From a virus, in the UHGV virus genome UHGV-1367859: a DNA stretch of 64,000 nucleotides, one strand, 5' to 3'. The notes beneath the pieces were generated by a model, which worked only from the letters and a program-made list of their open reading frames with translations, made no database searches and had not been told where the DNA came from. Positions within the stretch are counted from its first letter, which is position 1, and every line of letters begins with the position of its first letter. Both the position numbers and the translations under genes were made by a program. Positions 8,653-25,500 of this stretch are shown here, in pieces.

Positions 8653-8672
8653 AATATATAAATTTATTTTAG

Positions 8673-8745: not shown

Positions 8746-8750
8746 TTATG

Positions 8751-8790: not shown

Positions 8791-8799
8791 GTTAAAGTA

Positions 8800-9082: not shown

Positions 9083-9172
9083 AAGTAAAAACTCCACATT
9101 ATCTTCACAGACTATGTGAAGTGTTGCGACGTCATCCTAAAATAATCATCTTTTTACCTTAAAAAACACAAA

Positions 9173-9403: not shown

Positions 9404-9440
9404 ATGTCTCTTTCTGGTTTTTCTGTTGTGAGTGCGCCAC

Positions 9441-9767: not shown

Positions 9768-9772
9768 TTGAT

Positions 9773-10156: not shown

Positions 10157-10201
10157 TGATTAGTCAGTAAAAACAGTTATACATTATAGATTAAGCCCAA
10201 T

Positions 10202-10468
10202 TTAGATGTCCCCGTCAGAGAGCCATTTACATAGGAGGATTGCCAATGCCCAACAAACGAGCATTGCAGTAAAGAATAGTAAAATATCCATATTATTAAT
10301 ATTCAAGGGATTACAGTAGAAAAGAGGGATAATAGAGAAGGAATGTTTTATCCTATCCCATACTATCCCTCTTGTATAGAGTGTCAAGTAACAGAACATT
10401 CTATATCCACTATCAACATTAATACCTTTCAAGTGTAAGACACATAATAGGATACTATTAATGTTCAA
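10202..10468 (-). CDS. small membrane protein
   Basis: 88-aa ORF with a C-terminal hydrophobic helix. Confidence 0.3.
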   Translation of the reverse strand: MNINSILLCVLHLKGINVDSGYRMFCYLTLYTRGIVWDRIKHSFSIIPLFYCNPLNINNMDILLFFTAMLVCWALAILLCKWLSDGDI

Positions 10469-10492
10469 ACATTATTAATGTTCAGAGGATAA

Positions 10493-10522
10493 AAAGGGGA
10501 GCAGGCTTTCGCCTGCCCTCCA
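10493..10522 (-). terminator. rho-independent terminator (minus strand)
   Basis: Minus strand: ggagggcaggc-gaaa-gcctgctcccc followed by ttttta. It overlaps the stop codon of the ORF at 10523-10837. Confidence 0.6.
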
Positions 10523-10837
10523 TCAGAACTCTGCTACTACAGGTGCACCGCCCTGACCTTCCTCATGGAGGAGGTAGAACTGCTCACCTTCATTGCCTTT
10601 GACAAGGCTAATCATTGGGTGTGCAGGTACACCTTTGGCTGCAACTGCGCCTGTCTTTGCGCCGAAGGTGAAGAAGAGCTTGCCTGTGTTGGGATTCTTC
10701 TTCACTTGGATTTTGTCTACGCGCTTTTCAGCTTTGAACTGTTCGACTGTGAGAGTGTCGAGGAACTCAAGGTTTTTGTTTGCTTCCATTTGATTGTGGA
10801 TTAAACGATTGAACATTTTGCCTACCAGGGGTAACAC
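10523..10837 (-). CDS. hypothetical protein
   Basis: 104-aa ORF followed directly by a strong terminator hairpin. Confidence 0.45.
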   Translation of the reverse strand: MLPLVGKMFNRLIHNQMEANKNLEFLDTLTVEQFKAEKRVDKIQVKKNPNTGKLFFTFGAKTGAVAAKGVPAHPMISLVKGNEGEQFYLLHEEGQGGAPVVAEF

Positions 10838-10889
10838 CCCATTGGGCTAAGTGATGGGGAGGGTGTGGTTGGTGTATCCCCCACTCACG

Positions 10890-10935
10890 ACAATATCCAA
10901 AAAATTTTTTTAAAAAAAAAATTAAAATTTTTCCT
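10890..10935. repeat. AT-only palindromic tract in the divergent intergenic region
   Basis: The sequence aaaaaattttttttaaaaaaaaaattaaaattttt lies between the leftward and rightward gene blocks. Confidence 0.5.
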
Positions 10936-10942
10936 TAGCCTC

Positions 10943-10975
10943 TTGCATATATCAGATATTTTTACTAACTTTGCA
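10943..10975 (+). promoter_or_regulatory. Bacteroidetes-type sigma-A promoter (-33 TTG / -7 TAnnTTTG)
   Basis: TTG at 10943-10945, then a 20-nt spacer, then TAACTTTG at 10966-10973. Confidence 0.5.
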
Positions 10976-11256
10976 CCCACTAGGACATAACAAGTACTAG
11001 GCTACATATCCAACCTACTAAGGTTGAAGAGGTTAAGATAGTTGAGAAGTCTCCAAGCCAACATGGGAAAGTAAAGGATACCATAAGTAGGGCAGAGGTA
11101 ATTGGAGCTTGAGATAAGAAGAGAAGAACTAATAGTATATAAACGCCTTCAATGCTATCTTAATACTATACCAGAGAGCTTAATTGGTGAATTGCTCTAG
11201 GTCTCTTTATATCTTTAAGTGAATAGGTTGATTATGGTAGCTAGGAATTAGAATAA

Positions 11257-12315
11257 TTGTACGAAGATATGTGGGATAATCTTTCAATGGCTGAAAAAGC
11301 TAATATTATAATGTTAGGTATAAAATCGGGTATTGTAGATTTGCCAACCATAAGAAGGGGTTATAATAGTTTTGCTAGAGGGGGATATACTAAGTGGAAA
11401 GAGAAGATTCAAAAGCATAAAGGAATTATTATAGATGGTGATGACACCTATGACTATAGAGGGTTTTATGATAGCAATCCTGATGCTGCTTGGGAGATGC
11501 TGAAAGAGTCTGGTACAAGTCACTTTCCTGATAGATTTAAGACTGCAAGTCACCCATCCTTCTCAGATGAATCTCAATACTCTGGCAGAGTAAGTAGACA
11601 CAATCCTAAAGGTATACAAGGTGGTCATTGGTATAATGACCACATATACCAAATGTCGGAAGACCAGTTCAGCACAGACTGGGATACAGATAGAACTTTA
11701 GATTATTTCAGTCAAGAAAATGAGTCTCCTGTATTATACGGACCAGATGGCTCTACAGTACTAAGAAGTATACAAGTTACGCCTCAGTCTTCTGCACTAA
11801 ATAGAAGTAGAGAGGCAACAAGCCCAAATACTGACTTTAGTAATGCACAGGACATGACAGGAACACAACAGTTTGGGGCTAATTGGTTAGCAGAAATACC
11901 TATTATAGGTACTAATCCTCACACTTGTCTTAATACAGTTACAGGGTTTTATGACCCTAAGAGTACTGTAGCATCTAATGCTAATATGGTAGCTAGACCT
12001 GAAGATTTTGGGTATAGAGAGATACCACAAACTGAGGCAGTCCCTGGAGATATTATTATACTTTCAAATAGTGATAATCATCCTACTCACGCTGTAATGT
12101 TTGACAGTGTATCTGAGGAAGAGGGGATACATAATGGGTATCATATTGAAGTAGGAGATACCTTAGTTAACTATTCTAATGGAGGGAGAAATAAAGGCGA
12201 CTATAGGTTGCAAGGACCATTGCCTAGATTTAATGACCCAGAGAGAGCAGGAGGAGATTTTTCAGGGGTACATAGGTACTATAGATACACTGGAAAAGGA
12301 AGAAAGAAAAAATAA
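11257..12315 (+). CDS. putative CHAP/NlpC-P60-like peptidase (cell-wall hydrolase)
   Basis: The C-terminal region has Cys...His spacing (GTNPHTCLNTVTGFY ... PGDIIIL ... HPTHAVMF) reminiscent of CHAP/NlpC-P60 domains. Confidence 0.35.
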   Translation: MYEDMWDNLSMAEKANIIMLGIKSGIVDLPTIRRGYNSFARGGYTKWKEKIQKHKGIIIDGDDTYDYRGFYDSNPDAAWEMLKESGTSHFPDRFKTASHPSFSDESQYSGRVSRHNPKGIQGGHWYNDHIYQMSEDQFSTDWDTDRTLDYFSQENESPVLYGPDGSTVLRSIQVTPQSSALNRSREATSPNTDFSNAQDMTGTQQFGANWLAEIPIIGTNPHTCLNTVTGFYDPKSTVASNANMVARPEDFGYREIPQTEAVPGDIIILSNSDNHPTHAVMFDSVSEEEGIHNGYHIEVGDTLVNYSNGGRNKGDYRLQGPLPRFNDPERAGGDFSGVHRYYRYTGKGRKKK

Positions 12316-12477
12316 TTCAGTAAAAAAAAAGTTGTATATAAAAAACATAATATGAAACTAGGCACACATAATTCAATGTCTTATCTTAAACCTAAAAGAT
12401 GGTGGATGAGACCTTTTCACTTCATAGCTAAATGTCAAAGTAGACATATAGACCATTAGTACAAGCTAGGTGCTAGA

Positions 12478-12924
12478 ATGTTTGATATAAGAGTCTCTTA
12501 TAATAAGTATGGAGAAGCTGAATTTAGACATGGCTCTATGGCATTTGAAGGAGATGTAGAAGGAGTATTTAAATATTTGAATAGTCGTAATAGAGCTATC
12601 TATGTAAGATTAATTCTAGAAGTGTCAAAGAATACTAAGAACAGGGAAGATAAAGAAAGACTGTTTATTAATGATTGTAAGAGATGGGCTGAGACATATA
12701 CCCATATTAAATTTTTCTGCGGAAGAAGAAAATTTGATTGGGTTCAGTTATATAAGTTTGAACTAGATGATATAGAGCTTGTTCAGAAAATCTCCTCCAT
12801 GACTGGTACAGTACTAGATGATTGGTGGCCTTGGCTATATGCAAGGTTCTTCAATAAGAAGAATCTAGAAAAGCATAGAGATAGTAAGGATTGGATGTTG
12901 ATTGATTTTATTGGAATGGTATAA
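12478..12924 (+). CDS. hypothetical protein
   Basis: 148-aa ORF. Confidence 0.4.
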   Translation: MFDIRVSYNKYGEAEFRHGSMAFEGDVEGVFKYLNSRNRAIYVRLILEVSKNTKNREDKERLFINDCKRWAETYTHIKFFCGRRKFDWVQLYKFELDDIELVQKISSMTGTVLDDWWPWLYARFFNKKNLEKHRDSKDWMLIDFIGMV

Positions 12925-13005
12925 AGTGTGATAATTTATCTATGGTAATATAAAAGCCATAGATAAATTATTTTATTATATAAGCTAAAAAAAACACTTA
13001 GCCTA

Positions 13006-13040
13006 TTGGATATATCATGGCTATTATATAACTTTGCATT
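13006..13040 (+). promoter_or_regulatory. Bacteroidetes-type sigma-A promoter
   Basis: TTG at 13006-13008, a 20-nt spacer, TAACTTTG at 13029-13036, and an ATG at 13055. Confidence 0.45.
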
Positions 13041-13054
13041 ATATATAAGAATAA

Positions 13055-14089
13055 ATGAAAACTAGAAAAGAGACTGTACTAGGTAAGAGATTAGTGTAGG
13101 GAGACCCTAATCTAGTTACCAAAGATGAAATACTTGTAAAAGAAGTTGGGAATGAAGTTAAGTTATATGAGAGAAGTGATAATGGTAAACTTGTGTTATT
13201 AACTCCTGAAAGTAATAAACCTGCACCTAAAGATTATTTAGAGGTTTATTGGGCTAATTTCTCATGTCATATGAACCCAGGAAACATGGTACCTACTGAC
13301 ACTGCGTATACCATAGCTATAGACGCTCTACCATTAAAAAGAAATGGAAAAAATATATAGTATTTTTTATTTTCATTTCCTTTTTAGGGAGACTACTCCC
13401 TCGATGAGGGAGAAGTGACTGTTCTTACGAGATTAAGAACAGTCGACAACTCCCATTTGTTGGAGTTGCAAGAATTAAATAAAATACATAATATACAAGA
13501 CGTCCTTAATATAATAACTAAGGATGCGTTTGTCGAGGACCTACATACAACCAATTATATTCCATCTATAATACGCCAAAAATCTAGAGGAATTCTTGGT
13601 TTAATTAAATTAACTGCTAATACAGACGATTATCATATTCTAGATGCAAACTTAGAATTTCTTCCTGCGTTTACACAGAAAGAGGAACTTGAGGAGTAGA
13701 AATCTTTATTAGATGGGTCATTCAGAGAATGGAGGTGGAAAGCTAACTTTAAAATAAAAAATATAGATAATTAGGTTAGAACCTTCCTAGCTGAAGAAAT
13801 GTGTTATGTAGATGGAACTGTGATAGCAGGTTCTATAGGACCTACTTATCTTCAAAGCATTCGCCAGGCAATTATTAAGAATAAAGAAGTCTATGTTGGA
13901 GAGGTCCCAGCTAATGGAGGCCGTCATAAAGTAGATAATGGGGTAATACAACATGCTAAGTATCTATTTACTAGAAATACCTATGTTGTTAACTAGGCCT
14001 ATAAAAGCAGATAGACTCCTGTCTCTCAGGAGGATCTTCGCAGGTATTTTATAAAAAACATAAGCCAACACAAAATTTTAACAAAATAA
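13055..14089 (+). CDS. hypothetical protein with in-frame TAG codons (amber-recoded)
   Basis: A single frame stays open from ATG 13055 to TAA 14087-14089 with about 7 in-frame TAG and no TAA/TGA. It joins the track ORFs at 13415-13699 and 13799-13996, which are in the same frame. Confidence 0.5.
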
Positions 14090-14168
14090 AAAAAAAAGAG
14101 AAGGAGAACATGCCACCTGTACCCGACGCGTCGAGTGTGGTGATTCTCCTTTTTTTTCTGTCTAAAAA

Positions 14169-14205
14169 TTTGCATATATCAAAAATTTTACCTAACTTTG
14201 CACTG
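14169..14205 (+). promoter_or_regulatory. Bacteroidetes-type sigma-A promoter upstream of the tRNA array
   Basis: TTTG at 14169-14172, a 20-nt spacer, and TAACTTTG at 14193-14200. The first tRNA starts at 14222. Confidence 0.5.
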
Positions 14206-14221
14206 TAATTCAAGAGAACAT

Positions 14222-14293
14222 TGCCACTTGGTGTAATGGTCAGCACATCAGATTTTGGTTCTGAGTGTAAGGGTTCAAGTCCTTTAGTGGCAA
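14222..14293 (+). tRNA. tRNA-Gln (anticodon UUG)
   Basis: Acceptor tgccact/agtggca, D-arm gtg-taatggtcag-cac, anticodon stem tcaga/tctga, loop ttttggt, T-arm aaggg-ttcaagt-ccttt. Confidence 0.75.
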
Positions 14294-14297
14294 CTAT

Positions 14298-14369
14298 GCT
14301 CCCTTAGTTCAATGGAAGAACAAGGGTCTTCTAAGCCCTAAGTTGTAAGTTCGAGTCTTACAGGGAGTA
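14298..14369 (+). tRNA. tRNA-Arg (anticodon UCU)
   Basis: Acceptor gctccct/agggagt, D-stem gttc/gaac, anticodon stem agggt/gccct, loop cttctaa, T-arm gtaag-ttcgagt-cttac. Confidence 0.75.
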
Positions 14370-14454
14370 CAAACTTGTTCGTGAAAAGAATGTAAATGGC
14401 AAAGAAGTGAGAATCATTACCTACCTAGCCTGTGAAGGTGCAAGTAGGGTGCAT

Positions 14455-14527
14455 GGTGCCATCTTCTAAATGGTCAGGAAACTGCCCTTTCAAGGCAGTA
14501 ATCTGGGTTCAAACCCCAGTGGCACTA
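14455..14527 (+). tRNA. tRNA-Glu (anticodon UUC)
   Basis: Acceptor ggtgcca/tggcact, anticodon stem ctgcc/ggcag, loop ctttcaa, T-arm ctggg-ttcaaac-cccag. Confidence 0.75.
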
Positions 14528-14536
14528 CAATATATA

Positions 14537-14609
14537 GCTCATGAAGTGTAATGGTTTTGCATATCACACTGTCAATGTGAGGGATGGGGTTCAATTCCCC
14601 CATGGGCTG
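14537..14609 (+). tRNA. tRNA-Asp (anticodon GUC)
   Basis: Acceptor agctcat/atgggct, anticodon stem tcaca/tgtga, loop ctgtcaa, T-loop ttcaatt. The D-stem is weak. Confidence 0.6.
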
Positions 14610-14643
14610 CTGGCTATGTAACAAAGGCTCAGAGGAGCCAAAT

Positions 14644-14730
14644 GGAAGTCTAATCTATCAGGGATAGAAGCAGTCTTGAAAACTGAATGCTCATGTGAAA
14701 GTGGGTGGGGTTCGAGTCCTCAGGCTTCCT
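14644..14730 (+). tRNA. tRNA-Ser (anticodon UGA), long variable arm
   Basis: Acceptor ggaagtc(t)/(a)ggcttcc, possibly an 8-bp stem. D-stem tcta/taga, anticodon stem cagt/actg with loop cttgaaa, a roughly 20-nt variable region, and T-arm tgggg-ttcgagt-cctca. Confidence 0.5.
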
Positions 14731-14921
14731 CTATGATAACAATATTGAGAAGAGAAGGGTGGGTACTCAACCCTAATGATAAAGTAGTCAACTCAATACT
14801 TAAGAGAGTTGAACAGAACAATGGACTATGTCCCTGTCAGAATGACTCTGAGGATAAGCATTGTCCTTGTTCGAACTATAGAGTACTAGACCACTGTTGC
14901 TGCGGTTTATATAAGAAACTT

Positions 14922-15006
14922 GGAGAGTAATTTATCAAGGTGATAAACCTATCTGCTAAATAGTGTGGTCATTAATTTGGCTTTGGTTCGAGTCCAATGC
15001 TCTCCT
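14922..15006 (+). tRNA. tRNA-Ser (anticodon GCU), long variable arm
   Basis: Acceptor ggagagt/gctctcc, D-stem ttta/taaa, anticodon stem ctat/atag with loop ctgctaa, T-arm tttgg-ttcgagt-ccaat with one mismatch. 85 nt long. Confidence 0.45.
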
Positions 15007-15012
15007 CAACAT

Positions 15013-15087
15013 AGAGTAGTAGGGTAATAGGTAACCCCCTTCATTTGGGATGAAGTGATACTGCAAGTTCGAGTCTTGTCTACTCTA
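15013..15087 (+). tRNA. tRNA-Pro (anticodon UGG)
   Basis: Acceptor agagtag/ctactct, D-stem gggt/accc, anticodon stem cttca/tgaag, loop tttggga, T-arm gcaag-ttcgagt-cttgt. Confidence 0.7.
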
Positions 15088-15093
15088 CTTAAT

Positions 15094-15167
15094 GGGCGTT
15101 GTGGTGTAATTGGCTAACACATCTCCTTTGCAAGGAGAAGTTCAGGGTTCAAGTCCCTCATTGTCCA
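15094..15167 (+). tRNA. tRNA-Ala (anticodon UGC)
   Basis: Acceptor gggcgtt/attgtcc with the G3-U70 wobble that is the Ala identity element. Anticodon stem tctcc/ggaga, loop tttgcaa, T-loop ttcaagt. Confidence 0.7.
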
Positions 15168-15252
15168 CTTTGTTTTTCATGTTTTCATAAAATTGTAGGA
15201 CTGTTGTTAGTCCCTCTTTTCGGCAGTTAGAGGATAAAGAAACTGCCCACTT

Positions 15253-15323
15253 TGGGATATAGCTCGAAGGTCGAGCGTGAGACTGTTAATCTCTTGGTGA
15301 GAGTTCGATTCTCTCTATCCCAG
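15253..15323 (+). tRNA. tRNA-Asn (anticodon GUU)
   Basis: Acceptor tgggata/tatccca, D-stem gctc/gagc, anticodon stem (t)gaga/tctc(t), loop ctgttaa, T-arm gagag-ttcgatt-ctctc. Confidence 0.7.
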
Positions 15324-15442
15324 CCTAATAAAGAGAATAGTACTAGTGTAAGACTCAACGTAACATGTTCAGATATTAGCTCTGTTCTGAGTGTCGTATA
15401 ACTCAACCTAGCTACAGGGGGTGGTTAAAGGTAGCAACTGGT

Positions 15443-15483
15443 AGGTATGGTACTAGTAAAAGTTCGATTCTTTTACCTACCAC
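15443..15483 (+). other. tRNA-like minihelix (acceptor plus T-arm only)
   Basis: ggtaggt ... aaaag-ttcgatt-ctttt-acctacc-a gives a perfect acceptor and T-arm, but there is no room for D or anticodon arms. It lies directly upstream of the HNH ORF start. Confidence 0.25.
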
Positions 15484-15484
15484 T

Positions 15485-15961
15485 ATGAGAAGAAAAGGTA
15501 CAAGTAAAGTATATAGTATCTCTGATAAGGAGTTTATAAATTTAATAAATAGAGTTAATAGTTACTCTGATGCCCTGAGAGCATTAGGACTAACTACTAA
15601 AGGGGGTTCTTCACAAGATGTCTTGAAAAGAAGAATCCAAGAACTAGGATGTTCAACATCTCACTTTGGAGATGTAAGCATAAAATCTCCAACGCAAGTA
15701 TATCCCATTGAGAACATACTAGTAAAGAATAGTAGCTATGCTAATATAGCTTCACTTAAAAGAAGGCTTATAGACAATAAGTTGCTAAAATATGAATGCA
15801 GTAAATGTGGTATATCCTCGTGGAATGGTCAGCCACTATCTCTACATCTAGACCACATAAATGGTATAAATAATGACCATAGATTAGAGAATTTAAGATT
15901 CTTATGCCCTAACTGTCATTCACAGACAAGTACATACGCAGGTAAAAACAAAAGAAAATAA
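15485..15961 (+). CDS. HNH homing endonuclease
   Basis: CSKCG ... LDHINGINNDHRLENLRFLCPNCH is an HNH/Zn-finger motif. It is paralogous to 8236-8652 and embedded in the tRNA array. Confidence 0.75.
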   Translation: MRRKGTSKVYSISDKEFINLINRVNSYSDALRALGLTTKGGSSQDVLKRRIQELGCSTSHFGDVSIKSPTQVYPIENILVKNSSYANIASLKRRLIDNKLLKYECSKCGISSWNGQPLSLHLDHINGINNDHRLENLRFLCPNCHSQTSTYAGKNKRK

Positions 15962-15970
15962 TCATTACTC

Positions 15971-16042
15971 ATTGGTGTAGTGTTAATGGTAGCACAGTGA
16001 ACTCCAAATTCACAAGTGAGGGTTCGATTCCTTCCACCTTTG
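15971..16042 (+). tRNA. tRNA-Trp (anticodon CCA)
   Basis: D-stem gtgt/gcac, anticodon stem gtgaa/ttcac, loop ctccaaa, T-arm gaggg-ttcgatt-ccttc. The acceptor stem has two mismatches. Confidence 0.55.
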
Positions 16043-16048
16043 CCACAT

Positions 16049-16122
16049 TGGGATATAGCTTAGATGGTTAAAGCATCTGACTGATATTCAGAAGACCGTA
16101 GGTTCAAGTCCCACTATCCCAA
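16049..16122 (+). tRNA. tRNA-Ile (anticodon GAU)
   Basis: Acceptor tgggata/tatccca, D-stem gctt/aagc, anticodon stem tctga/tcaga, loop ctgatat, T-loop ttcaagt. Confidence 0.7.
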
Positions 16123-16124
16123 CT

Positions 16125-16206
16125 GTACTAGTAGCTTAATGGTAAAGCACCACACTGTGAATGTGGAAGATGTGAGTTCAATTCTCACCTAGCACCCCAA
16201 CATATG
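16125..16206 (+). tRNA. tRNA-His (anticodon GUG)
   Basis: Acceptor gtactag/ctagcac with one mismatch, D-stem gctt/aagc, anticodon stem ccaca/tgtgg, loop ctgtgaa, T-arm gtgag-ttcaatt-ctcac. Confidence 0.6.
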
Positions 16207-16214
16207 GATGTATC

Positions 16215-16291
16215 CCCTGTGTCTTATACACACTAGAAAGGGTAGTTGGTCACACGCAGGTTCAAGCCCTGCCATCCATACAATACTCATG
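16215..16291 (+). tRNA. atypical tRNA or tRNA pseudogene (isotype undetermined)
   Basis: It has a perfect acceptor (atggatg/catccat) and T-arm (gcagg-ttcaagc-cctgc), but the internal 43 nt does not fold into canonical D and anticodon arms. The only good hairpin is tgtgt-cttat-acaca. Confidence 0.3.
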
Positions 16292-16338
16292 AGTGGCATA
16301 GTAGTCCCTGGGGTGGTTTCAAACTGCTATGTCTGTAT

Positions 16339-16410
16339 CTCTAGGATTCCGAATGGTTAGGAGCTGGTCTGCAAAACCAGTATTTGTGGGTTCAATTCCC
16401 ACCCTAGAGT
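16339..16410 (+). tRNA. tRNA-Cys (anticodon GCA)
   Basis: Acceptor ctctagg/cctagag, anticodon stem ctggt/accag, loop ctgcaaa, T-arm gtggg-ttcaatt-cccac. Confidence 0.7.
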
Positions 16411-16522
16411 CCTTGGAGGAGCAGGTAGTCTATCCATGGAAAAACCTCCGTAAAAACAGCTACAATTGACTACTAAGGAGAAGGAAGGGATAAATAACTC
16501 CTTAACAAATACCCTTCTACCA

Positions 16523-16594
16523 CTTCCTATAGCTCAATGGTAGAGCTACTGACTCTTAATCAGAAGGTTCAAGGTTCAAATCCTTGTAGGAAGA
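16523..16594 (+). tRNA. tRNA-Lys (anticodon CUU)
   Basis: Acceptor cttccta/taggaag, D-stem gctc/gagc, anticodon stem ctga/tcag, loop ctcttaa, T-arm caagg-ttcaaat-ccttg. Confidence 0.75.
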
Positions 16595-16776
16595 CATAAC
16601 ATTTTAATTAAATAACAGTGTTATGAGAGTACTTAGATTTATTAAGAAAGCAGTCAAAGCTTATTTTAGAATGACTGCTGAGAACTATTCTATAAGGTGT
16701 ACAGGTGATGTATTTATACCTGTCCCTTAAGGATAGTTCCTCCTTCCTCTCTGACAAGTTATTTGATAATAAATAT

Positions 16777-16857
16777 GGGAGTATCGCGTAGTGGCAATCG
16801 CAGTTGACTGTAAATCAACCCTCTAAGAGTTCATAGGTTCGAGTCCTTTTGCTCCCA
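16777..16857 (+). tRNA. tRNA-Tyr (anticodon GUA), long variable arm
   Basis: Acceptor gggagta/tgctccc, D-arm gcg-tagtggcaat-cgc, anticodon stem gttga/tcaac, loop ctgtaaa, a 13-nt variable arm, and T-loop ttcgagt. Confidence 0.75.
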
Positions 16858-16922
16858 CTTCAATAGAACTTTGGCTTTTATCTATAAGCCTGACAGGGGT
16901 AGAGACCTGAATAGATAATATT

Positions 16923-16996
16923 GGAACTTTGGTGTAGATGGTTTGTCACATCAGATTGAAGCTCTGAGGGCTGGGGTTCGACTCCCTGAGGTTCCA
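16923..16996 (+). tRNA. tRNA-Phe (anticodon GAA)
   Basis: Acceptor ggaactt/aggttcc, anticodon stem tcaga/tctga, loop ttgaagc, T-arm tgggg-ttcgact-ccctg. Confidence 0.75.
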
Positions 16997-17019
16997 CTAC
17001 ATAGTAAAAAGAGAAAGAT

Positions 17020-17619
17020 ATGGTAATAAAAAGAGGGGATAAAGGTCCTAATGTAAAGCTCCTTCAGAGGAAGCTTAATCTGAAAGATGATGGAATATTT
17101 GGACCTCTCACAGAAGAAGCAGTCAAAGAATTTCAGAAGGCTAATGGTCTTGTTGTAGATGGCATAGTGGGAAATAACACATGGTCTAAGCTGAATGTAA
17201 CTCAGAACAAGAGGAATATAAAGGAAATTATAGTTCATTGTTCTGCTACTCCTGAAGGTGAGGACTTTACTACTGCGCAGATTAAGCAATGGCACCTTCA
17301 AAGAGGTTTCTCTGATATAGGTTATCATTATGTAATCTATAGAGATGGGTCAATACATGCTGGTAGACCAGAGGCTATATCTGGAGCACACTGTACTGGG
17401 CACAATACAATGTCTATTGGAGTATGCTATATCGGAGGATGTGCCAAGGATGGAAAAACTCCAAAAGATACTAGAACTGAAGCTCAAAAAGCTGCTCTAG
17501 TACAGCTTCTTAAACAGCTTAAAGCAAAGTACCCTAATGCTACAATACATGGCCATAGGGAGTTTGCAAATAAAGCATGTCCAAGTTTTGATGCTAAAGC
17601 AGAATATACTTCTCTCTAA
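17020..17619 (+). CDS. endolysin: peptidoglycan-binding domain plus N-acetylmuramoyl-L-alanine amidase (amidase_2/PGRP type)
   Basis: An N-terminal PG_binding_1-like repeat (GDKGPNVKLLQRKLN...DGIFGPLTEEAVKEFQ) followed by an amidase_2 signature (GYHYVIYRDGSIHAGRPEAISGAHCTGHNTMSIGVCYIGG). It is embedded in the tRNA array. Confidence 0.8.
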   Translation: MVIKRGDKGPNVKLLQRKLNLKDDGIFGPLTEEAVKEFQKANGLVVDGIVGNNTWSKLNVTQNKRNIKEIIVHCSATPEGEDFTTAQIKQWHLQRGFSDIGYHYVIYRDGSIHAGRPEAISGAHCTGHNTMSIGVCYIGGCAKDGKTPKDTRTEAQKAALVQLLKQLKAKYPNATIHGHREFANKACPSFDAKAEYTSL

Positions 17620-17630
17620 AAAGAGAGACA
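17609..17630 (+). terminator. hairpin at the endolysin stop codon
   Basis: The hairpin tctctc-taaaaa-gagaga spans the TAA stop codon and is weakly terminator-like. Confidence 0.3.
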
Positions 17631-17634
17631 ATAA

Positions 17635-17716
17635 GCCTCTGTGGTGAAATGGTAAACACAAGGGACTTAAAATCCCTCGGATTTAATCCTTGAGGGTTCA
17701 AATCCCTCCAGAGGTA
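17635..17716 (+). tRNA. tRNA-Leu (anticodon UAA), long variable arm
   Basis: Acceptor gcctctg/cagaggt, anticodon stem aggga/tccct, loop cttaaaa, T-arm gaggg-ttcaaat-ccctc. Confidence 0.75.
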
Positions 17717-17720
17717 CAAT

Positions 17721-17807
17721 GCCCCCTTGGTGGAATGGTAGACACGCTGGTCTTAGGAACCAGTATGAAGTAATAGTAGTGTGAGGGTTCGAGTCTCTCA
17801 GGGGGTA
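17721..17807 (+). tRNA. tRNA-Leu (anticodon UAG), long variable arm
   Basis: Acceptor gccccct/agggggt, anticodon stem ctggt/accag, loop cttagga, T-arm gaggg-ttcgagt-ctctc. Confidence 0.75.
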
Positions 17808-18252
17808 CTGAAATAAGAAATTAAGTATTTATATAACATTGAGTTTTACTGTAAATATTCAGGTGGCGTAATTCATGTTATCATAACCCCTTTACTATTT
17901 GTAAAAGTATGAAATACACAGTTTAGTATAATAAACAGAAATATCAAGTAGACATATCTGATAATAATATAGCTATTTATGATTCCTATAAAATCACTTC
18001 ATTATCTGATATGAGTAGTTTCTCATTCATTTAAAAGCTAGATTTTACCCATACAGTTCTATTAATAACAGAACTATGTTTAGCTTACTTAATGAATGGA
18101 GAACTCACAATTTATTATATTCTCTTGGTGTTCAAAAAGAAAGAACTGCTAGTGTAGACCTGGAGTCTAATCAATCTTGGTATATGACCGTAGCTTATGC
18201 TATATTATCTCCATTTTATTTACACTTTTATTAAAAATTTATTATCAATTTA

Positions 18253-18292
18253 TTTGGTAATTTAAATTATTTTTCATACCTTTGCATTGTTA
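18253..18292 (+). promoter_or_regulatory. Bacteroidetes-type sigma-A promoter dedicated to the suppressor tRNA
   Basis: TTG at 18254-18256, a 20-nt spacer, TACCTTTG at 18277-18284. The tRNA starts about 18 nt downstream. Confidence 0.5.
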
Positions 18293-18301
18293 ATAAAATA
18301 T

Positions 18302-18373
18302 TGCCTCATGGTGTAATGGTTAGCACAGAGGACTCTAAATCCTTTGGTCTCTGTTCGAGCCAGAGTGGGGCGA
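18302..18373 (+). tRNA. amber-suppressor tRNA (anticodon CUA), Gln-like body
   Basis: Acceptor tgcctca/tggggcg, 7 of 7 paired counting GU pairs. D-arm gtg-taatggttag-cac is nearly identical to that of tRNA-Gln(UUG) at 14222. Anticodon stem gagga/tcctt, loop ctctaaa with U33, CTA at 18335-18337, and A37. T-arm ctctg-ttcgagc-cagag. Confidence 0.75.
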
Positions 18374-18706
18374 CTAACTTTAATCACAATGAATAAGGAA
18401 GCTTTAAAATGGTTTATGTCCAATGTAATGCTCTAGCTAGAGCAGATTGACAAAGAGGTAAGTAACTCACTGTTGCAGGATGAACAGTTTGTTCTTGATT
18501 TTTATGATAAATTAAATGAAATAAGTGTTAGAAAATAAAAAAAATATAATTATGGAACAGGTAAAGATACCACACCCTATTGCTAGGATGGTGCTAACAC
18601 AGACTAAAATTATTCTTAATAGCCCCAACAACCAAGACAAAGAGTGGCTCAAAACTTTTAAAGAAGAACTTAATAAACTTATTAATCCTGAGTAATCTTT
18701 AGGAAA

Positions 18707-18779
18707 GCTTCCTTAGTTCAGCTGGTAGAACTACTGTTTTGTACTCAGTATGTCAGGGGTTCGAGTCCTCTAGGAAGCT
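18707..18779 (+). tRNA. tRNA-Thr (anticodon UGU)
   Basis: Acceptor gcttcct/aggaagc, D-stem gttc/gaac, anticodon stem actg(t)/(t)cagt, loop tttgtac, T-loop ttcgagt. Confidence 0.65.
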
Positions 18780-18788
18780 CAAGTAAGT

Positions 18789-18859
18789 GCAGGATTAGTT
18801 TAATGGTAAAATGCCACTCTTCCAAAGTGGATTTGGGGGTTCGATTCTCCTATCCTGCT
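18789..18859 (+). tRNA. tRNA-Gly (anticodon UCC)
   Basis: Acceptor gcaggat/atcctgc, anticodon stem ccact/agtgg, loop cttccaa, T-loop ttcgatt. Confidence 0.7.
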
Positions 18860-18865
18860 CTATAT

Positions 18866-18938
18866 TGTGGGGTGTTAGCAGTGGTAGCTAGTCAGGCTCA
18901 TAACCTGAAGGTCGGAGGTTCGAGTCCTCCTCCCGCAA
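18866..18938 (+). tRNA. tRNA-Met (anticodon CAU); the initiator / elongator / Ile2 distinction is unresolved
   Basis: Acceptor tgtgggg/tcccgca, D-stem tagc/gcta, anticodon stem tcagg/cctga, loop ctcataa, T-arm ggagg-ttcgagt-cctcc. Confidence 0.6.
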
Positions 18939-19111
18939 CTAAATCGAAATATTATGGGAGAAGATATGTATAAGAACGGAAAGATAATGAATGCTGTTGA
19001 AGCTCAGACTATCAGGGAGCTAGCAGATTTTGCCAATGATTATAAGATACCTAGGGAGGATGTGGTTTCAATCCTTCCTTCAAGAGAAGGATATGTAATG
19101 GTTTACTACTA

Positions 19112-19354
19112 TTGAACAACATGGAAGAGAACAAAGAGAATGTAAAGGAACTCACACTACTTAGGTTTGAGGCAGTGTCAAAGTTCAAATCTGTAAAGAG
19201 GGCTTGGAGAAGAGGTCATGTTTCAATTTATGGGTTCATTTACCCAAAGAGACCTTTCAATAACAGGACATCAAGAAAGAACAGCAGGCCCTTTAATGAA
19301 CTTAGAAAGGAGATATATGGGCAACTCAGAGATAAAGGCAGACTTGCAGTCTAA
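19112..19354 (+). CDS. hypothetical protein
   Basis: 80-aa ORF that overlaps the next ORF in another frame. Confidence 0.3.
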   Translation: MNNMEENKENVKELTLLRFEAVSKFKSVKRAWRRGHVSIYGFIYPKRPFNNRTSRKNSRPFNELRKEIYGQLRDKGRLAV

Positions 19355-19541
19355 ATATAATAATGAACCAGTATTCTATTGCAAACATTGCCTATCTCTT
19401 AAAATAAGAGATGCTGGTCTTCCTGACCTACTTTACTGTGATGACTGTGGCTCAGCTGATGTCCTTTCAACAAGTATAGAAGAATGGGAGAAGATGTACA
19501 AAGAGAAATATGGATTTAAGTTTTTAGATAAGGGTTTATAA
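19218..19541 (+). CDS. hypothetical Zn-ribbon protein
   Basis: CKHC ... CDDCG cysteine pairs. Confidence 0.4.
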   Translation: MFQFMGSFTQRDLSITGHQERTAGPLMNLERRYMGNSEIKADLQSKYNNEPVFYCKHCLSLKIRDAGLPDLLYCDDCGSADVLSTSIEEWEKMYKEKYGFKFLDKGL

Positions 19542-19553
19542 TACAAAATAAAA

Positions 19554-19853
19554 ATGGAAGAGAAGAATGAAAAAATGGCTGAACAGCCTACGAGATTTAC
19601 TTATGAACAACTTGAGCAGATTGCAAGTAATCTAAGCACTCAGGTACAACAGCTCGGAGCAAGGCTCCAGGAAGCTAATATGTTCAATATGTTCAAGAGA
19701 CTGGACTACTGCTTCAAGGTACTTGAAGTTGCTCCTACTCTGTCTGCTGCTATGTTTAGCCCTGATTTTGTAGAAAGATGTGCCAAGGAAATTGAGGAAC
19801 TTATGACTCCTCCTACTCCCACACCTACAGAGGAAGAACTTGAAAAGGAGTAA
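19554..19853 (+). CDS. hypothetical protein
   Basis: 99-aa ORF. Confidence 0.4.
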   Translation: MEEKNEKMAEQPTRFTYEQLEQIASNLSTQVQQLGARLQEANMFNMFKRLDYCFKVLEVAPTLSAAMFSPDFVERCAKEIEELMTPPTPTPTEEELEKE

Positions 19854-19858
19854 AAGCT

Positions 19859-20242
19859 ATGATGGGGAAAATGAACAATGTTATTAGAATCCCCACTTCA
19901 TTAAGCACAGGTTTCTTTAGATTTTGGTTTGAGTTCCTTAGACCTTTTCACAATCTTACTGACAGAGAGATGCAGGTAGCTTCCTCCTTACTTAAGAGGA
20001 GATATGAGCTTAGTAAAGTCATCCATGATGAAGACATCCTTGATAAGGTTGTGATGAGTGAAGATACAAAGAAAGTAGTGAGAGAGGGGTGTAACATCTC
20101 TCTCCCCCACTTTCAAGTAATAATGGGGAAACTCAGAAAGAACAAGGTCATCCTTGAGGGCAGAATCAATCCAAAGTTCATTCCAAACCTCACAGAAGAA
20201 CAAGGTTCTTTCAGGTTACTTCTTAATTTTGAACTCAGCTGA
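19859..20242 (+). CDS. hypothetical protein
   Basis: 127-aa ORF. Confidence 0.4.
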   Translation: MMGKMNNVIRIPTSLSTGFFRFWFEFLRPFHNLTDREMQVASSLLKRRYELSKVIHDEDILDKVVMSEDTKKVVREGCNISLPHFQVIMGKLRKNKVILEGRINPKFIPNLTEEQGSFRLLLNFELS

Positions 20243-22174: not shown

Positions 22175-22583
22175 TATGACACTTGAAGATGTAATTGAAT
22201 CACTTAATGTGCATATACTGAATAAAAGAAGAGACTTGCACATCTTGTCAAACAGCCAGGAACACCTTGTTCTACAGAGAGTTATAGAACCTCATCCTAC
22301 ATTTAAGTCATATAAGAGGTATGAGTTTATATTATGGGTGGTTGGTAATGATTCAAAGTATAGATTACTTACTTTGACTAAGCAGGTTAATATGAGTGAT
22401 ATTCCTTCATATGCACAAGAGAGCTTTATTAAAGCTACAGAATCTGAATTTGTTACTGGGCTATTCGGCCTTATTCTAGATGGCAAGTCTTTTAATAAAA
22501 AAGACAGAACAATACTTGAAGATATTATCTATGGAGAATACCTCGGCTATGGAGATGAATGTGTACTAGACCCCCTTGACTGA
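22140..22583 (+). CDS. hypothetical protein
   Basis: 147-aa ORF. Confidence 0.4.
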   Translation: MLRKKQCMKICNMTLEDVIESLNVHILNKRRDLHILSNSQEHLVLQRVIEPHPTFKSYKRYEFILWVVGNDSKYRLLTLTKQVNMSDIPSYAQESFIKATESEFVTGLFGLILDGKSFNKKDRTILEDIIYGEYLGYGDECVLDPLD

Positions 22584-25500
22584 AGAACTCCTTGGGTCTT
22601 TACCTGAGGAAGTCAAGGAGGAGTTATTGGACACTATAAATAGTGTAGAACTTATAAAAAGACTTATCTCTCCTAATAGGGTATATGCTAAGGATAGACC
22701 AAGAGATGAGCAAGGAAGGATTATAGTAGACCTTGCCAATCCTCATATACTTGAGGATATGGATTATTTCAGACAACCAGCCTTACACTTTATGAAGCAT
22801 GGCTGCTATACTTTTCTAAGACCAAATTCTAATCCTAACAGTGAATACAGAAAGCACTGGGATGAGGAGATGAGGAGATGTAGAGAGGGTTATGTAAGGG
22901 AGAGTGATGGAGAATGGGTCACAGGATTCCTTTATTGGTTTCTTAATTACTGTCCCATGATGGTAAATAAGGTAATTTCTGGCACAAGGAAAGCTGTCAG
23001 AGTTGAGTCTTTCCCCTTCTTCTTTGAAGGAATCTATTGGAGATTTCACTATCTTCATCAAGCAAGAGAGGCTGGTAAACATGCCATAGAACTTGCAAAG
23101 AGAGGTTGTGCAAAGTCATATAGTCTTGCAAGTATAATGTCTCACAACCTTATACTTGGTGAATCTACTGAAGTAAAGAGGAGGGTTATTACTGTACTTA
23201 CTGCTTATCAGAAAGAGTATCTTAGTGACAGTAAGGATGGCACACTCTCTAAGTTCAAACCTGGAATTAACTTCTCCTTCAAAAATACTCCATTCCCTAG
23301 GCTCATGTTAAAGAACTCTCCTAATGAGATGGCATGGCAGATGGGCTACAAGGATGAGTTTGGTATTGAAAGTGGGTCATTGAATCAGGTGCTTGCTGTT
23401 TCTGCAAAGGATGACTCAGAGAAGTTAAGAGGTAAGAGAGGTTGGATTCTATTCGAGGAGATGGGTTCTTTTAAGGGACTTCTATCCCTGTATGACATCA
23501 CAAGAAAATCTGTAGAAGATGGTGACTATACATTTGCTACAATGTACCTTGTAGGTTGTGTATGTGCTGGTACTAAGGTATGGACATTAGATGGCAGGAA
23601 TATCAATATAGAGGATTTAAAGAGAGAGGATGGTATCATAGGATTTACAGACTCCTTTGAGTCAGGTACTGAACCTAATATTCGCCTCACAAGAGGGATT
23701 ACCAAAGAACCTATAATGAGTTCTATAAGTATTGCTAAAAAACCATGTGTACTTATTAAACTGAGTAATGGAAATGAACTTAGATGCTCTACAGACCATC
23801 CAATTCTTACTCAGAAACAAAGAATGAATCATAATGGGTCTATAAGGTATTATGAAGAAGTATTCAAAAATGCTGGAGCTTTAAGTGTAGGAGATAGAAT
23901 TATAGAGAGTAGGGAAGTTCCAATATTTGGGACAGATACCATGTTTGACCCTAGATTAGTAGGTATGCTTATTGGAGATGGTTCTTATGGATTAAGGCAA
24001 TCCCCCAAGTATAGTTCTGAGGATAAAGAGCTTTTAGACTATGTAAAGCATAGATATGAATGGTCATTATCTGCTACTCATATTACCAAGAAAGGAAAAA
24101 TATACGAGGATATAAGAATTAAAGGTATTTGTAATAAATTAAGAGAATTAGGTATTTAGGGGCAAGTAAAATCCAATAAAAGGCTTCCTATCAACTATTA
24201 GACTCTTACAAGAGATGATACCTCACTATTGCTATCTGGATTATATGATACTGATGGTAGTATAAGCTTTAATAGAGACGGATATATATCTTTAACTCAA
24301 AGCAATAGGAAAATATTAGAGCAAGTTAAAGTACTGTGGAGAAAATTTGGAGTAGTTGGCACTATTGTGGAGACCAAGCCAAAACTATGTTCTGATAGGA
24401 AAGATAGAAATTCTTGGTTTACTCTATCTATATCAGGGAGACATAATTGTACAAGAGTGTGTGGTGTGCTTCAACTTCTTGTTCCACACAAGAGAGATTG
24501 CCTTAAAAGGATAATGGACTATTATAATAGCAATCCGAGTATGAAGGCTCAAAAATATCCAGAGGATATAATAGTTCACAAAGTTACTTCTGTAGAAGAG
24601 ATAGGTGAACAAGAAGTATATAATTTAACTGCTGGATTAAGTCATACCTACTTGGCTAACAATATAGTAACTCATAATACTGCTGCTGAGGATGAGTCAG
24701 ACTTCAGTTCGGCAAAAACTCTTCTTTACAATCCAGATGGTTACAATATTCTGGCTATTGAGAATGTCTATGACAGACCTAAGCAAGGAAAGCCTACCTT
24801 TGGATTTTTCTTTCCTTCTTATGTAAATAGGGCAGGATGTTACAACAAGGATGGTGTTTCTGATGTAACAAAGGCTCTCATAGAAATTCTGTTGGCAAGA
24901 CACAAAGCTAAATATTCTGCTGACCCTAAGTCAGTATTAAGAGTTATTGCCGAGGACCCAATTACACCAGCTGAAGCTATCATTAAAGTGAAGGCTGCCT
25001 ACTTTCCTACAGTAGCTCTTACTGAGAGATTGGCTCAACTTGACTCAGACCCTCATGCTTTTGATGATGTTTACATAGGTAATCTTGCCCTAGCAAGTGG
25101 TAATAAGGTAGAGTTTAGAATAGGTAATGATGTGCCTATCAGAAAGTATGGAGTTGACAATTCAACAGTAGGTGCTATTGAGATATTTGAAATGCCTGAG
25201 AAACAAGCAAATGGGGATGATTTCAATATGAGATATATTATAGGCCATGACCCTGTGGATAATGATTAGGCAGAGTCTTCTTCTCTTTCTTCAACCTTTG
25301 TACTTGACCTGTTTACTGACAGAATTGTAGCAGAATACACTGGTAGGCAGGCATTTGCAGATGATAACTTTGAGATAGTAAGAATGCTGTGTCTATTCTA
25401 TAATGCCAAGTGCATGTACGAGGCTCATCCATATAGTCAGTCTGTACCAACACCAAATGGTATGAAACTGTGGAAGGATGTTAAAATAGGGGATAAACTG

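Follow-up and report, generated by a model that had tools for sequence, protein, structure and literature searches.

A candidate non-cloverleaf isoleucine tRNA on a conserved scaffold in the tRNA array of a crAss-like phage

An initial annotation of the virus genome UHGV-1367859 described an array of about 25 transfer RNA (tRNA) genes in which two elements keep a perfect acceptor and T arm and were thought to lack both the D and the anticodon arm. The question raised by this locus is whether such elements are degraded tRNAs, deliberate minihelices or tRNAs of another build. The whole stretch of DNA analysed, hereafter the window, is 64,000 nucleotides (nt) long, and labels of the form L### denote related or homolog-bearing loci in viral contigs that were compared with it. 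The first element, element 1, was located at 15440-15482 and not at 15443-15483, and the second, element 2, at 16204-16280 and not at 16215-16291. Element 2 is probably a functional non-cloverleaf tRNA-Ile(UAU) decoding AUA on a conserved, phage-specific scaffold, as judged from a scaffold covariance model, covariation and the replacement of a canonical gene in its slot. Element 1 is most likely a tRNA remnant tied to the insertion of an HNH endonuclease gene.

Architecture and distribution of element 2

Element 2 starts 4 nt past tRNA-His and spans 77 nt on the plus (+) strand. Its acceptor stem pairs 16204-16210 with 16274-16280 and has the discriminator A, and its T arm pairs 16256-16260 with 16268-16272 around the loop TTCAAGC. 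A D arm at the normal place is absent from element 2, as was claimed, merely 7-8 nt being left between the acceptor and anticodon stems. The claimed lack of an anticodon arm was mistaken: the stem GUGU/ACAC at 16219-16222/16230-16233 closes the loop CUUAUAC at 16223-16229 with UAU as anticodon. This arm is enclosed by a helix of 3 base pairs (bp) between CCC at 16214-16216 and GGG at 16240-16242, and the D-loop-like strand AGUUGGUCA follows at 16244-16252. By this layout the acceptor stem, T arm and anticodon arm are standard and the difference is confined to the D region, where the strand that normally opens the D stem pairs over 3 bp with a strand 3′ of the anticodon arm. Nested in the 3-bp helix, the anticodon arm would form one continuous stacked arm of approximately normal length, and the D-loop-like sequence, displaced 3′ into the single strand that precedes the T arm, could remain within reach of the T loop.

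With the Rfam tRNA model RF00005, element 2 gave no match at E<=1 in a 13-kb search and 23.3 bits on a 139-nt slice, under the gathering score of 29. In the slice alignment the D arm was deleted and 18 nt were inserted in the variable region, and the model independently selected the same acceptor, anticodon (UAU) and T arms. Apart from this sub-threshold tRNA model no Rfam family matched element 2, and ARAGORN called it neither by default nor with -mt. Over the scaffold as a whole, default ARAGORN called 3 of 126 copies with UAU or GAU anticodons, one of them wrongly as Leu, and 0 of 28 copies with CAU, thereby missing about 98%. The scaffold covariance model R1 scored element 2 at 94.3 bits (E=1e-27) and the canonical tRNAs of the window at 21 bits or less.

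The scaffold was traced with the core pattern CTTATAC N5 AGAAAGGGTA, which was seeded from the Ile-type core. The pattern was present in at least 119 viral contigs, including crAss-like contigs of about 100 kb, contigs of 150-370 kb and environmental samples, and overall the 77-nt scaffold was found in at least 150 viral contigs. The pattern matches reduced to 64 unique sequences, almost all of 77 nt and with at least six of the seven acceptor pairs, two of which were excluded afterwards when length and core motif were checked. Many copies have acceptor and T stems that differ in sequence yet remain complementary. A search of 596 Gb of bacterial and archaeal genomes gave 30 pattern matches, about the chance expectation; three were real scaffold copies, all on contigs of 0.8-2.6 kb from metagenome-assembled genomes, and none was on a proper bacterial chromosome. 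Among cultured phages BLAST detected the scaffold in 77 Streptomyces phage records (Stanwilliamsviridae, e.g. Jay2Jay) and in Kehishuvirus 'tikkala', all with the loop CUGAUAA and hence the anticodon GAU. The listed phage records carry no annotation under the scaffold match, except that of EGole, which labels the 77-nt element tRNA-Leu. No description of the scaffold was found in the full-text literature searched, a body that leaves subscription journals mostly outside its coverage.

Covariation was tested with 64 distinct sequences (46 in an earlier version) against 500 shuffles and slid controls. In the proposed structure 97.2% of the cells were paired, and the covariation score was 0.891, compared with 0.211 for the shuffles, none of which reached 0.891, and about 0.1 for the slid controls. 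Compensatory changes occurred in 18 of the 20 tested pairs and all four helices covaried. The acceptor columns 1-7/71-77 were 98.7% paired with compensatory changes in 7/7 pairs, and the discriminator was A in 64/64 sequences. The anticodon stem (columns 16-19/27-30) was 99.2% paired, with four or five pair types at each of its four covarying pairs, and the T stem (columns 54-58/66-70) was 93.8% paired, with covariation in 4/5 pairs. The enclosing helix, columns 11-13/37-39, was 100% paired and occurs as CCC/GGG, CGC/GCG, CTC/GAG, CAC/GTG and ACC/GGT, its central pair 12-38 being CG in 40 sequences, GC in 13, UA in 5, UG in 4 and AU in 2. For this helix a register from 8-41 to 12-37, proposed by RNAalifold, was rejected because the GAU and CAU classes do not keep it intact, whereas the accepted register 11-39/12-38/13-37 is fully paired with four Watson-Crick pair types plus the G-U wobble.

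The stems vary freely around a near-invariant core. The strand after the enclosing helix reads A-R-Y-U-G-G-U-Y-A, as in a D loop (A14, R15, G18, G19, A21), and U8 is invariant. The R of this strand, column 42, covaries with column 53, the base just before the T stem, in the manner of the Levitt pair R15-Y48 (AU 46, GC 9, GU 1, GG 8), and this strand and pair would form tRNA-like tertiary contacts. A canonical cloverleaf through alternative pairings, a long class-II variable arm, an intron, a permuted gene and a pairing of U8-A9-U10 with A51-U52-G53 were also considered for the scaffold and were supported by neither sequence nor covariation. Of the two fates proposed in the initial annotation for element 2, degradation is at odds with a scaffold conserved, through compensatory changes in all its helices, across 150 or more viral contigs, and a minihelix is at odds with a complete, covarying anticodon stem-loop.

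Probable isoleucine identity and alternative readings

The anticodons of the scaffold are UAU, GAU and CAU only. In every copy the anticodon loop reads C-U-NAU-A-(A/C). Across 185 loci, all sequences scoring more than 80 bits with the scaffold model had UAU or GAU in this loop, and an anticodon-agnostic pattern with a base other than A in position 35 gave 0 matches in all viral contigs. The CAU pattern was found in 27 contigs, always in large tRNA arrays. Since many of these arrays already have a canonical Met(CAU) and Ile(GAU) and no other AUA decoder, the CAU form is probably a lysidine-type Ile2. One locus, L404, holds two different CAU forms at 4089-4165 and 4761-4837, possibly Met plus Ile2, and adjacent GAU and UAU non-canonical genes are seen in L168 (9881-10047) and L223.

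Element 2 shares its loop CUUAUAC unchanged with canonical phage tRNA-Ile(UAU), and in the Bacteroides phage crAss001, the uncultured phage cr85_1 and many relatives it is the canonical gene that stands 4 nt after tRNA-His. About 30 relatives have a scaffold element in this position with the same 4-nt spacer, often filling the 85-nt gap before tRNA-Cys as 4 + 77 + 4 nt. A census of 42 crAss-like arrays spanning the Ile slots gave for the GAU slot 31 canonical and 11 non-canonical genes, with no array having both or neither, and for the UAU slot 15 canonical and 24 non-canonical genes, with both in none and neither in three. The GAU form was confined to the GAU slot and the UAU form to the UAU slot in these arrays, and seven of the 42 have non-canonical Ile forms only. 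With its NAU-type anticodon and its substitution for the canonical gene, element 2 has the marks of an Ile isoacceptor and is the sole candidate AUA decoder encoded by the window phage, whose Ile codons are most often ATA (420 of 13,102 codons; 48% of the Ile codons of the late genes). It would be expected to fold into an L shape, be processed and CCA-tailed, be charged by the host isoleucyl-tRNA synthetase (IleRS) and read AUA on the ribosome. That the scaffold serves likewise in carriers of very different lineages (crAss-like, jumbo and marine phages and the Streptomyces Stanwilliamsviridae among them), being charged by IleRS (the CAU form after lysidine formation) and reading AUA and AUY, is favoured with somewhat less assurance than the case of element 2 itself.

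In the closest relatives of the window the slot after tRNA-His holds an intact canonical gene in L084, nothing in L085, and in L086 and L087 (about 4880-4960) a seemingly decayed canonical tRNA-Ile(UAU) with the loop CTTATAA and a degenerate T loop, not called by ARAGORN. These differing contents indicate that the Ile(UAU) slot turns over quickly within the clade.

Several points weigh against the decoding of AUA as Ile. The thermodynamic fold of the single element 2 sequence is no better than that of shuffles (z = -1.2). Jay2Jay, in which many tRNAs are duplicated, has the non-canonical GAU form beside a canonical Ile(GAU) and Ile(UAU), so mutual exclusivity holds in crAss-like arrays only. 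The E. coli IleRS has identity elements in the D stem (U12-A23); the scaffold has no counterpart of these, and its acceptor pair 4-69 is not conserved. Incomplete arrays are frequent in phages, the window array itself lacking Val, and the absence of a canonical Ile gene is thus no proof of decoding by its replacement. The CAU class might be a Met tRNA and not a lysidine-type Ile, and because the search started from the Ile-type core, it would overlook any relatives of the scaffold that serve other amino acids and have diverged in the core.

Some of these points bear on the strongest alternative, that the scaffold family consists of tRNA-like RNAs without a decoding role, acting as a decoy or sponge for a host defence nuclease directed at tRNAs, as a mimic titrating or regulating IleRS, TilS or an ileS T-box, or as the substrate of a phage enzyme. 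Phage tRNA loci are known anti-defence assets; the Septu system cleaves tRNA-Tyr and T-even phages counter it through their tRNA locus (PMC13096335). Without a normal D arm the use of the scaffold by elongation factor Tu (EF-Tu) or the ribosome could be impaired, and Jay2Jay, besides retaining its canonical Ile tRNAs, has the non-canonical gene next to a nucleotidyltransferase gene. A decoy, however, need not keep its anticodon identity slot by slot as the crAss-like arrays do, and there the non-canonical form never stands beside the canonical gene, while seven arrays would otherwise have no Ile tRNA. All features of decoding are kept as well: a 7-nt loop with U33 and A37, A73, the T loop, the GG-containing D-loop-like strand and the Levitt-like pair. 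As for the T-box variant, Bacteroidota are not known to employ T-boxes. We therefore regard a family without a decoding role as unlikely.

The Streptomyces phages offer a genomic setting of their own. The non-canonical Ile(GAU) gene follows the gene annotated 'nucleotidyltransferase' by about 15-20 nt in Jay2Jay (L312, 74702-75341) and EGole (74730-75341), and the same genomes encode Ro, RNA ligase, polynucleotide kinase and a transfer-messenger RNA (tmRNA), a set that may constitute a context of RNA repair and maturation.

That element 2 is a drifting pseudogene, a former tRNA-Ile(UAU) that lost its D arm, would agree with its being missed by default ARAGORN and the Rfam gathering score and with the instability of the Ile(UAU) slot in L085-L087. 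Against it stand the recurrence of the 77-nt architecture, in 150 contigs or more and in unrelated families of cultured phages, the near-invariant core among freely varying stems, and the covariation, since drift would break pairs and not maintain them with compensatory changes in 18 of 20 and 97% of cells paired; the covariation effectively refutes this reading, which is left very improbable. Least probable of all is tRNA-Leu(CAA), the label given by ARAGORN to one copy (L183) and as tRNA-Leu in the EGole record, which the covariation refutes because the 'CAA' falls in the 5′ strand of the anticodon stem (columns 16-19 with 27-30) and varies between copies (CUG, GAC, GUG and others) while the UAU/GAU/CAU loop is fixed.

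A functional tRNA on this scaffold was further compared with known non-standard tRNAs. Mitochondrial tRNAs without a D arm, such as metazoan tRNA-Ser(AGY) and the truncated tRNAs of nematodes and arachnids, resemble it in having no D hairpin at positions 10-25, in their normal acceptor, anticodon and T arms and in being missed by ARAGORN and cloverleaf covariance models (bioRxiv 10.64898/2026.06.12.731814). The scaffold differs in being of full length and not miniaturised, in its confinement to NAU anticodons, in keeping a D-stem-like 3-bp helix by means of the strand 3′ of the anticodon arm, in retaining a D-loop-like GG strand with a Levitt-like pair, and in its use by phages of bacteria with normal translation systems. 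Element 2 as a tRNA of the mitochondrial type was accordingly rejected, as it has 77 nt, a covarying 3-bp helix and a 14-nt D-loop-like strand instead. The tRNA-Ile(UAU) decoders of AUA in Mycoplasma mobile and some phages, and the lysidine-type tRNA-Ile2(CAU) (PMC3919564), share with the scaffold the loops CUUAUAC and CUCAUAA, U33, A37 and the discriminator A73, and it is the place of canonical phage tRNA-Ile(UAU) that the scaffold takes; the core architecture differs. Natural and conserved deviations from the 7/5 cloverleaf in bacteria and phages are also represented by tRNAs with 8/4 and 9/3 acceptor/T stems, found by mining metagenomic sequences (PMC5389517). These keep all four arms and alter stem lengths only, whereas the scaffold alters the chain connectivity of the D region. 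YrlA RNAs are bacterial and phage Y RNA-like molecules with a tRNA-mimicking domain, and they are like the scaffold a phage-encoded tRNA-like acceptor/T-arm module; Jay2Jay also encodes a Ro protein. A link with YrlA or Y RNA was rejected, since the scaffold has 77 nt with a true anticodon loop, no Ro-binding helix and no Rfam match, and no Ro gene was found in the examined regions of crAss-like carriers.

Bacterial-type translation is regarded as relying on cloverleaf tRNAs throughout. If the decoding reading is true, the scaffold would be the first class of non-cloverleaf elongator tRNAs outside organelles, and IleRS, EF-Tu, RNase P and RNase Z, the CCA-adding enzyme and the ribosome would tolerate another topology given the contacts of the L shape. 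AUA is the codon with the most elaborate bacterial decoding solutions, such as lysidine, and restriction of the scaffold to the AUN box, mostly to AUA, would imply a specific selective reason, e.g. independence from or evasion of a host factor. As the scaffold is missed by ARAGORN and Rfam thresholds and is hardly ever annotated in deposited genomes, analyses of phage codon usage and tRNA complements are biased, and the AUA-decoding capacity of phages would be systematically under-counted. The question is directly testable in cultured carriers, Kehishuvirus 'tikkala' and about 77 Streptomyces phages, and the scaffold, which looks naturally orthogonal, could serve engineering.

Element 1 and the HNH gene

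Element 1 (15440-15482, +) is a minihelix of the form GGTAGGT-11 nt-AAAAG TTCGATT CTTTT-ACCTACC-A, with a perfect acceptor stem of 7 bp, a spacer of 11 nt, a 5-bp T stem with the loop TTCGATT and the discriminator A. RF00005 scored it at 20.7 bits with the D and anticodon arms both deleted, in agreement with its first description as an acceptor/T-arm form, and the ATG of the HNH gene begins 2 nt past its end. Alignment with the closest relatives L084-L087 and blastn placed element 1 and the HNH gene on one insertion of about 530 nt at 15437-15969 (+); in L084-L087 the sequence ...GGTAGCA runs directly into tRNA-Trp at this site. Element 1 is absent from L084-L087 and all other loci compared and thus confined to the window's own contig, and as it occurs in this single genome no conservation or covariation points to a function. 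Across its T arm, a stretch of 18 nt matches exactly the tRNA-Asn T-arm region of cr85_1-type arrays. The remnant would have come along with the HNH insertion or have arisen through it, so that degradation, which failed for element 2, fits element 1.

Alternatively element 1 could be a kept minihelix, a processing signal at which RNase P and RNase Z (with CCA addition) free the HNH messenger from a polycistronic tRNA precursor. Its perfect stems and canonical T loop are as expected for this, acceptor/T-arm minihelices are minimal substrates of RNase P and the CCA-adding enzyme, and HNH genes of this family frequently begin 7-35 nt after the end of a full tRNA (L321, L332, L393, L328, L357), 43 of 80 homologs having a tRNA within 200 nt upstream. 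This proposal is doubtful, as occurrence in one genome gives no comparative sign of selection, no second minihelix was found at HNH homologs, the nearest of which is only 56% identical, and the fold of element 1 is not significantly above shuffles (z = -1.85).

The HNH gene itself, at 15485-15961 (+) as annotated, encodes a free-standing endonuclease of 158 amino acids (PF01844, 23.4 bits against a cutoff of 21.4; phrog_10822, E=8e-54). Its homologs in viral contigs had tRNAs within 1.5 kb in 71 of 80 cases, and among relatives they occupy the slots Asn/Trp, Leu/Leu, Leu/Thr and Arg/Glu. Free-standing homing endonucleases of phage tRNA clusters also include HNH enzymes, as in T5. Like endonucleases of the T4 SegB type, the window enzyme is lodged between tRNA genes in a slot that varies between relatives; it is of the HNH and not the GIY-YIG family, and the insertion here also brings a tRNA minihelix (PMC2330249, PMC13096335). 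Its distribution matches that of the homing endonucleases of tRNA clusters, and nuclease and homing activity are predicted. At other HNH homologs tRNAs for the same amino acid flank the gene on both sides (Trp in L371, Gln in L357 and L361) or two tandem tRNAs of the same isotype lie just upstream (Gln in L368 and L376, Tyr in L389), which suggests homing-associated tRNA duplication as in SegB-driven amplification.

The array and its phage

The window belongs to a crAss-like phage (Crassvirales, Steigviridae, Asinivirinae). No near relatives of the array were found by megablast against 50,697 phage records, and kinship was therefore set by protein comparison. In its major capsid protein (39360-40874) the phage shares 78-81% identity with cr85_1 and crAss001, a portal protein, a capsid protein and a split large terminase were matched in PHROGs, and the IMG/VR contig 3300045988_037736 (101 kb) is essentially the same genome.

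By default ARAGORN placed 21 tRNAs at 14222-18939 on the + strand, and on the minus (-) strand it called two, both for Arg. With element 2 and a tRNA-Ser(GCU) recovered at relaxed settings, the + strand has 23 tRNA-type genes and one minihelix, close to the annotated number of about 25, and all 22 isotypes that had been named are present. The covariance models bore out the genes, the RF00005 scores of the ARAGORN-called tRNAs being 42.7-71.3 bits, with the exception of Ser(UGA), for which the match was to the related tRNA-Sec model (41.2 bits). The set covers 19 of the 20 amino acids, in keeping with the claim that most are represented, with no tRNA-Val in the window array, and a T-loop motif search of 7000-20000 disclosed no further hidden tRNA-like elements in the array.

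The array opens with Gln(UUG) at 14222-14294 (62.2 bits), Arg(UCU) at 14298-14370 (67.7 bits), Glu(UUC) at 14455-14528 (60 bits), Asp(GUC) at 14536-14610 (50.7 bits) and the class II Ser(UGA) at 14644-14731. Ser(GCU) at 14922-15007 was called by ARAGORN with -ps80 or -mt only and matched the tRNA-Sec model at 36.6 bits (fold z = -3.0); the same slot is occupied by it in L004, L086 and crAss001. Pro(UGG) at 15013-15088, Ala(UGC) at 15094-15168 and Asn(GUU) at 15253-15325 precede the HNH insertion, after which come Trp(CCA) at 15971-16045, the canonical Ile(GAU) at 16049-16123 (71.1 bits), His(GUG) at 16125-16199 and element 2. Cys(GCA) at 16339-16412, Lys(CUU) at 16523-16595, Tyr(GUA) at 16777-16858 and Phe(GAA) at 16923-16997 are followed by the endolysin gene, Leu(UAA) at 17635-17717, Leu(UAG) at 17721-17808 and the suppressor tRNA(CUA) at 18302-18374 (55 bits), and the array ends with Thr(UGU) at 18707-18780, Gly(UCC) at 18789-18860 and Met(CAU) at 18866-18939 (42.7 bits). 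All these genes are on the + strand, and the unscored ones other than Ser(UGA) were likewise found by both ARAGORN and RF00005, as were Arg(UCU) at 8672-8745 and Arg(CCU) at 9008-9082 in a minus-strand cluster.

The anticodon set fits the codon use of the phage. AGA and AGG make up 98% of Arg codons and are matched by two Arg(UCU) and one Arg(CCU), and the array also supplies anticodons for the A/U-ending codons that are preferred for Leu, Ser, Thr, Ala, Pro and Glu. The region would be a translation-supply module of a TAG-recoded crAss-like phage, heading the late (+ strand) genes, with tRNAs suited to A/U-rich codon use and three cargo genes lodged among them: a small Cys-rich open reading frame (ORF), the mobile HNH endonuclease and an amidase endolysin. 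A scan for sigma-70 promoters and terminators was uninformative for a Bacteroidota phage.

The amidase gene at 17020-17619 (+), annotated from the start as an endolysin, combines Amidase_2 (N-acetylmuramoyl-L-alanine amidase; PF01510, 63.8 bits) with the cell-wall-binding PG_binding_1 (PF01471, 62.2 bits), matches phrog_822 'amidase' (E=4e-62) and contains no in-frame TAG. Homologs with 71-79% amino-acid identity lie between Phe and the pair Leu(UAA)/Leu(UAG) (L083-L087) or separate the two Leu genes from each other (L004). When related loci were sought with the endolysin gene as the anchor, mostly unrelated phages came back, only L003 and L004 being useful. Since a homolog of the crAss001 holin Gp28 is kept in the window (33987-34286) and no homolog of the crAss001 L,D-carboxypeptidase is present there, the amidase is probably the endolysin of this phage. 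The Cys-rich ORF at 14733-14930 (+; 65 amino acids, CPC..CPC..CCC) gave no Pfam match. It is 67% identical by tblastn to crAss001 Gp5, annotated as 'putative ferredoxin-thioredoxin reductase', has homologs with 95-98% identity in L084-L087 and overlaps tRNA-Ser(GCU) by 9 nt as in crAss001.

The array stands in crAss001 (Kehishuvirus) and cr85_1 (Kahnovirus) at the same position as in the window, at the head of the late operon and upstream of Zn-finger, VpsT-like and HU genes and of the large terminase gene (TerL). These two phages have 22-23 tRNAs each with interspersed protein genes that include an HNH gene, and the shared order is Gln-Arg-Glu-Asp-(Ser)-small Cys-rich ORF-Ser-Pro-Ala-...-Trp-Ile-...-His-Ile(UAU)-...-Phe-Leu-...-Thr-Gly-Met. 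Unlike them the window has no Val, Lys(UUU), Gly(GCC) or internal Met, has in addition Cys, Tyr and the amber suppressor, and carries the non-canonical gene in place of the canonical Ile(UAU). The array proteins of crAss001 are Gp5, Gp6, DpsA and an HNH endonuclease; the endonuclease lies between two Gly genes there and between Asn and Trp in the window, and DpsA lies between the two Leu genes of crAss001, the endolysin of the window between Phe and Leu(UAA). The same backbone was found in 80 related loci, with gains and losses. An array with embedded lysis and homing-endonuclease genes is a known trait of crAss-like gut phages, and the array, suppressor, endolysin and HNH gene are already known in kind, the present array adding one example.

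Reading through TAG raised the stop-to-stop ORF coverage of the window from 58% to 77%, and one ORF of 1617 amino acids contains 40 in-frame TAGs. In structural genes aligned to crAss001 proteins, TAG positions corresponded to Q in 15 of 45 cases and to the next commonest residues in 4 each; the ORF at 13055-14089 is not conserved and was unusable for this. All 94 in-frame TAGs were in + strand genes and none was in the sampled minus-strand (early) genes. With a CUA-anticodon tRNA and in-frame TAGs of conserved genes aligning with Gln, the phage, by these alignments, reads TAG as Gln (genetic code 15). The suppressor, named in the initial annotation and labelled 'Pyl' by ARAGORN on account of its anticodon only, is closest in the window to tRNA-Gln(UUG), and by this likeness is a tRNA-Gln-derived amber suppressor that would let the TAG-containing late genes be read. 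Recoded crAss-like and other gut phages (bioRxiv 10.1101/2021.08.26.457843; PMC9523058) likewise have a tRNA(CUA) related to tRNA-Gln, in-frame TAGs confined to late or structural genes, and TAGs aligning with Gln of standard-code homologs, with no essential difference from the window. Among 84 related loci a CUA tRNA was found in the window contig and L124 only, and recoding is thus sporadic in the clade.

Between Leu(UAG) and the suppressor lies an AT-rich stretch of about 490 nt (17809-18301, +) with no convincing coding sequence, by which the suppressor is set apart, and it may have a regulatory region of its own, distinct from that of the other array genes. In the spacer between Ala and Asn lies TCCCTCTTTTCGGCAGTTAGAGGATAAAGAAACTGCC, a motif of 37 nt (15212-15248, +). 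Dozens of related arrays have it at 90-95% conservation, usually directly ahead of tRNA-Val, and it could be a processing or promoter element. The spacer of about 50 nt between the non-canonical Ile slot and tRNA-Cys (16281-16338, +) is conserved in L085-L087 and also kept in relatives without the non-canonical gene, and by eye a 10-bp hairpin (GGCATAGTAG / CTGCTATGTC) is possible in it.

The minus-strand cluster with the two Arg tRNAs also holds a phage-encoded tmRNA at 7608-8001 (Rfam RF00023 at 69.5 bits, E = 1e-25, the gathering score being 47), called by ARAGORN at -ps90 only and with the tag peptide AEVDETPVRMAA*. An isolated 3′ tRNA fragment at about 8197-8235 (-), between an ORF and the tmRNA, has a T arm (GTGAG-TTCGAGT-CTCAC) followed by TGGAATC with an encoded ACCA behind it, and a 5′ strand to complete the acceptor stem is missing. 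The TerL gene at 22576-26904 (+) is a single frame of 1442 amino acids with in-frame TAGs that align to Q, compared with about 760 amino acids in crAss001. By Pfam it contains an intein splicing domain, two stretches matching LAGLIDADG_3 and one Hom_end domain, and with two visible '...THN|T/C' junctions it appears to carry two inteins.

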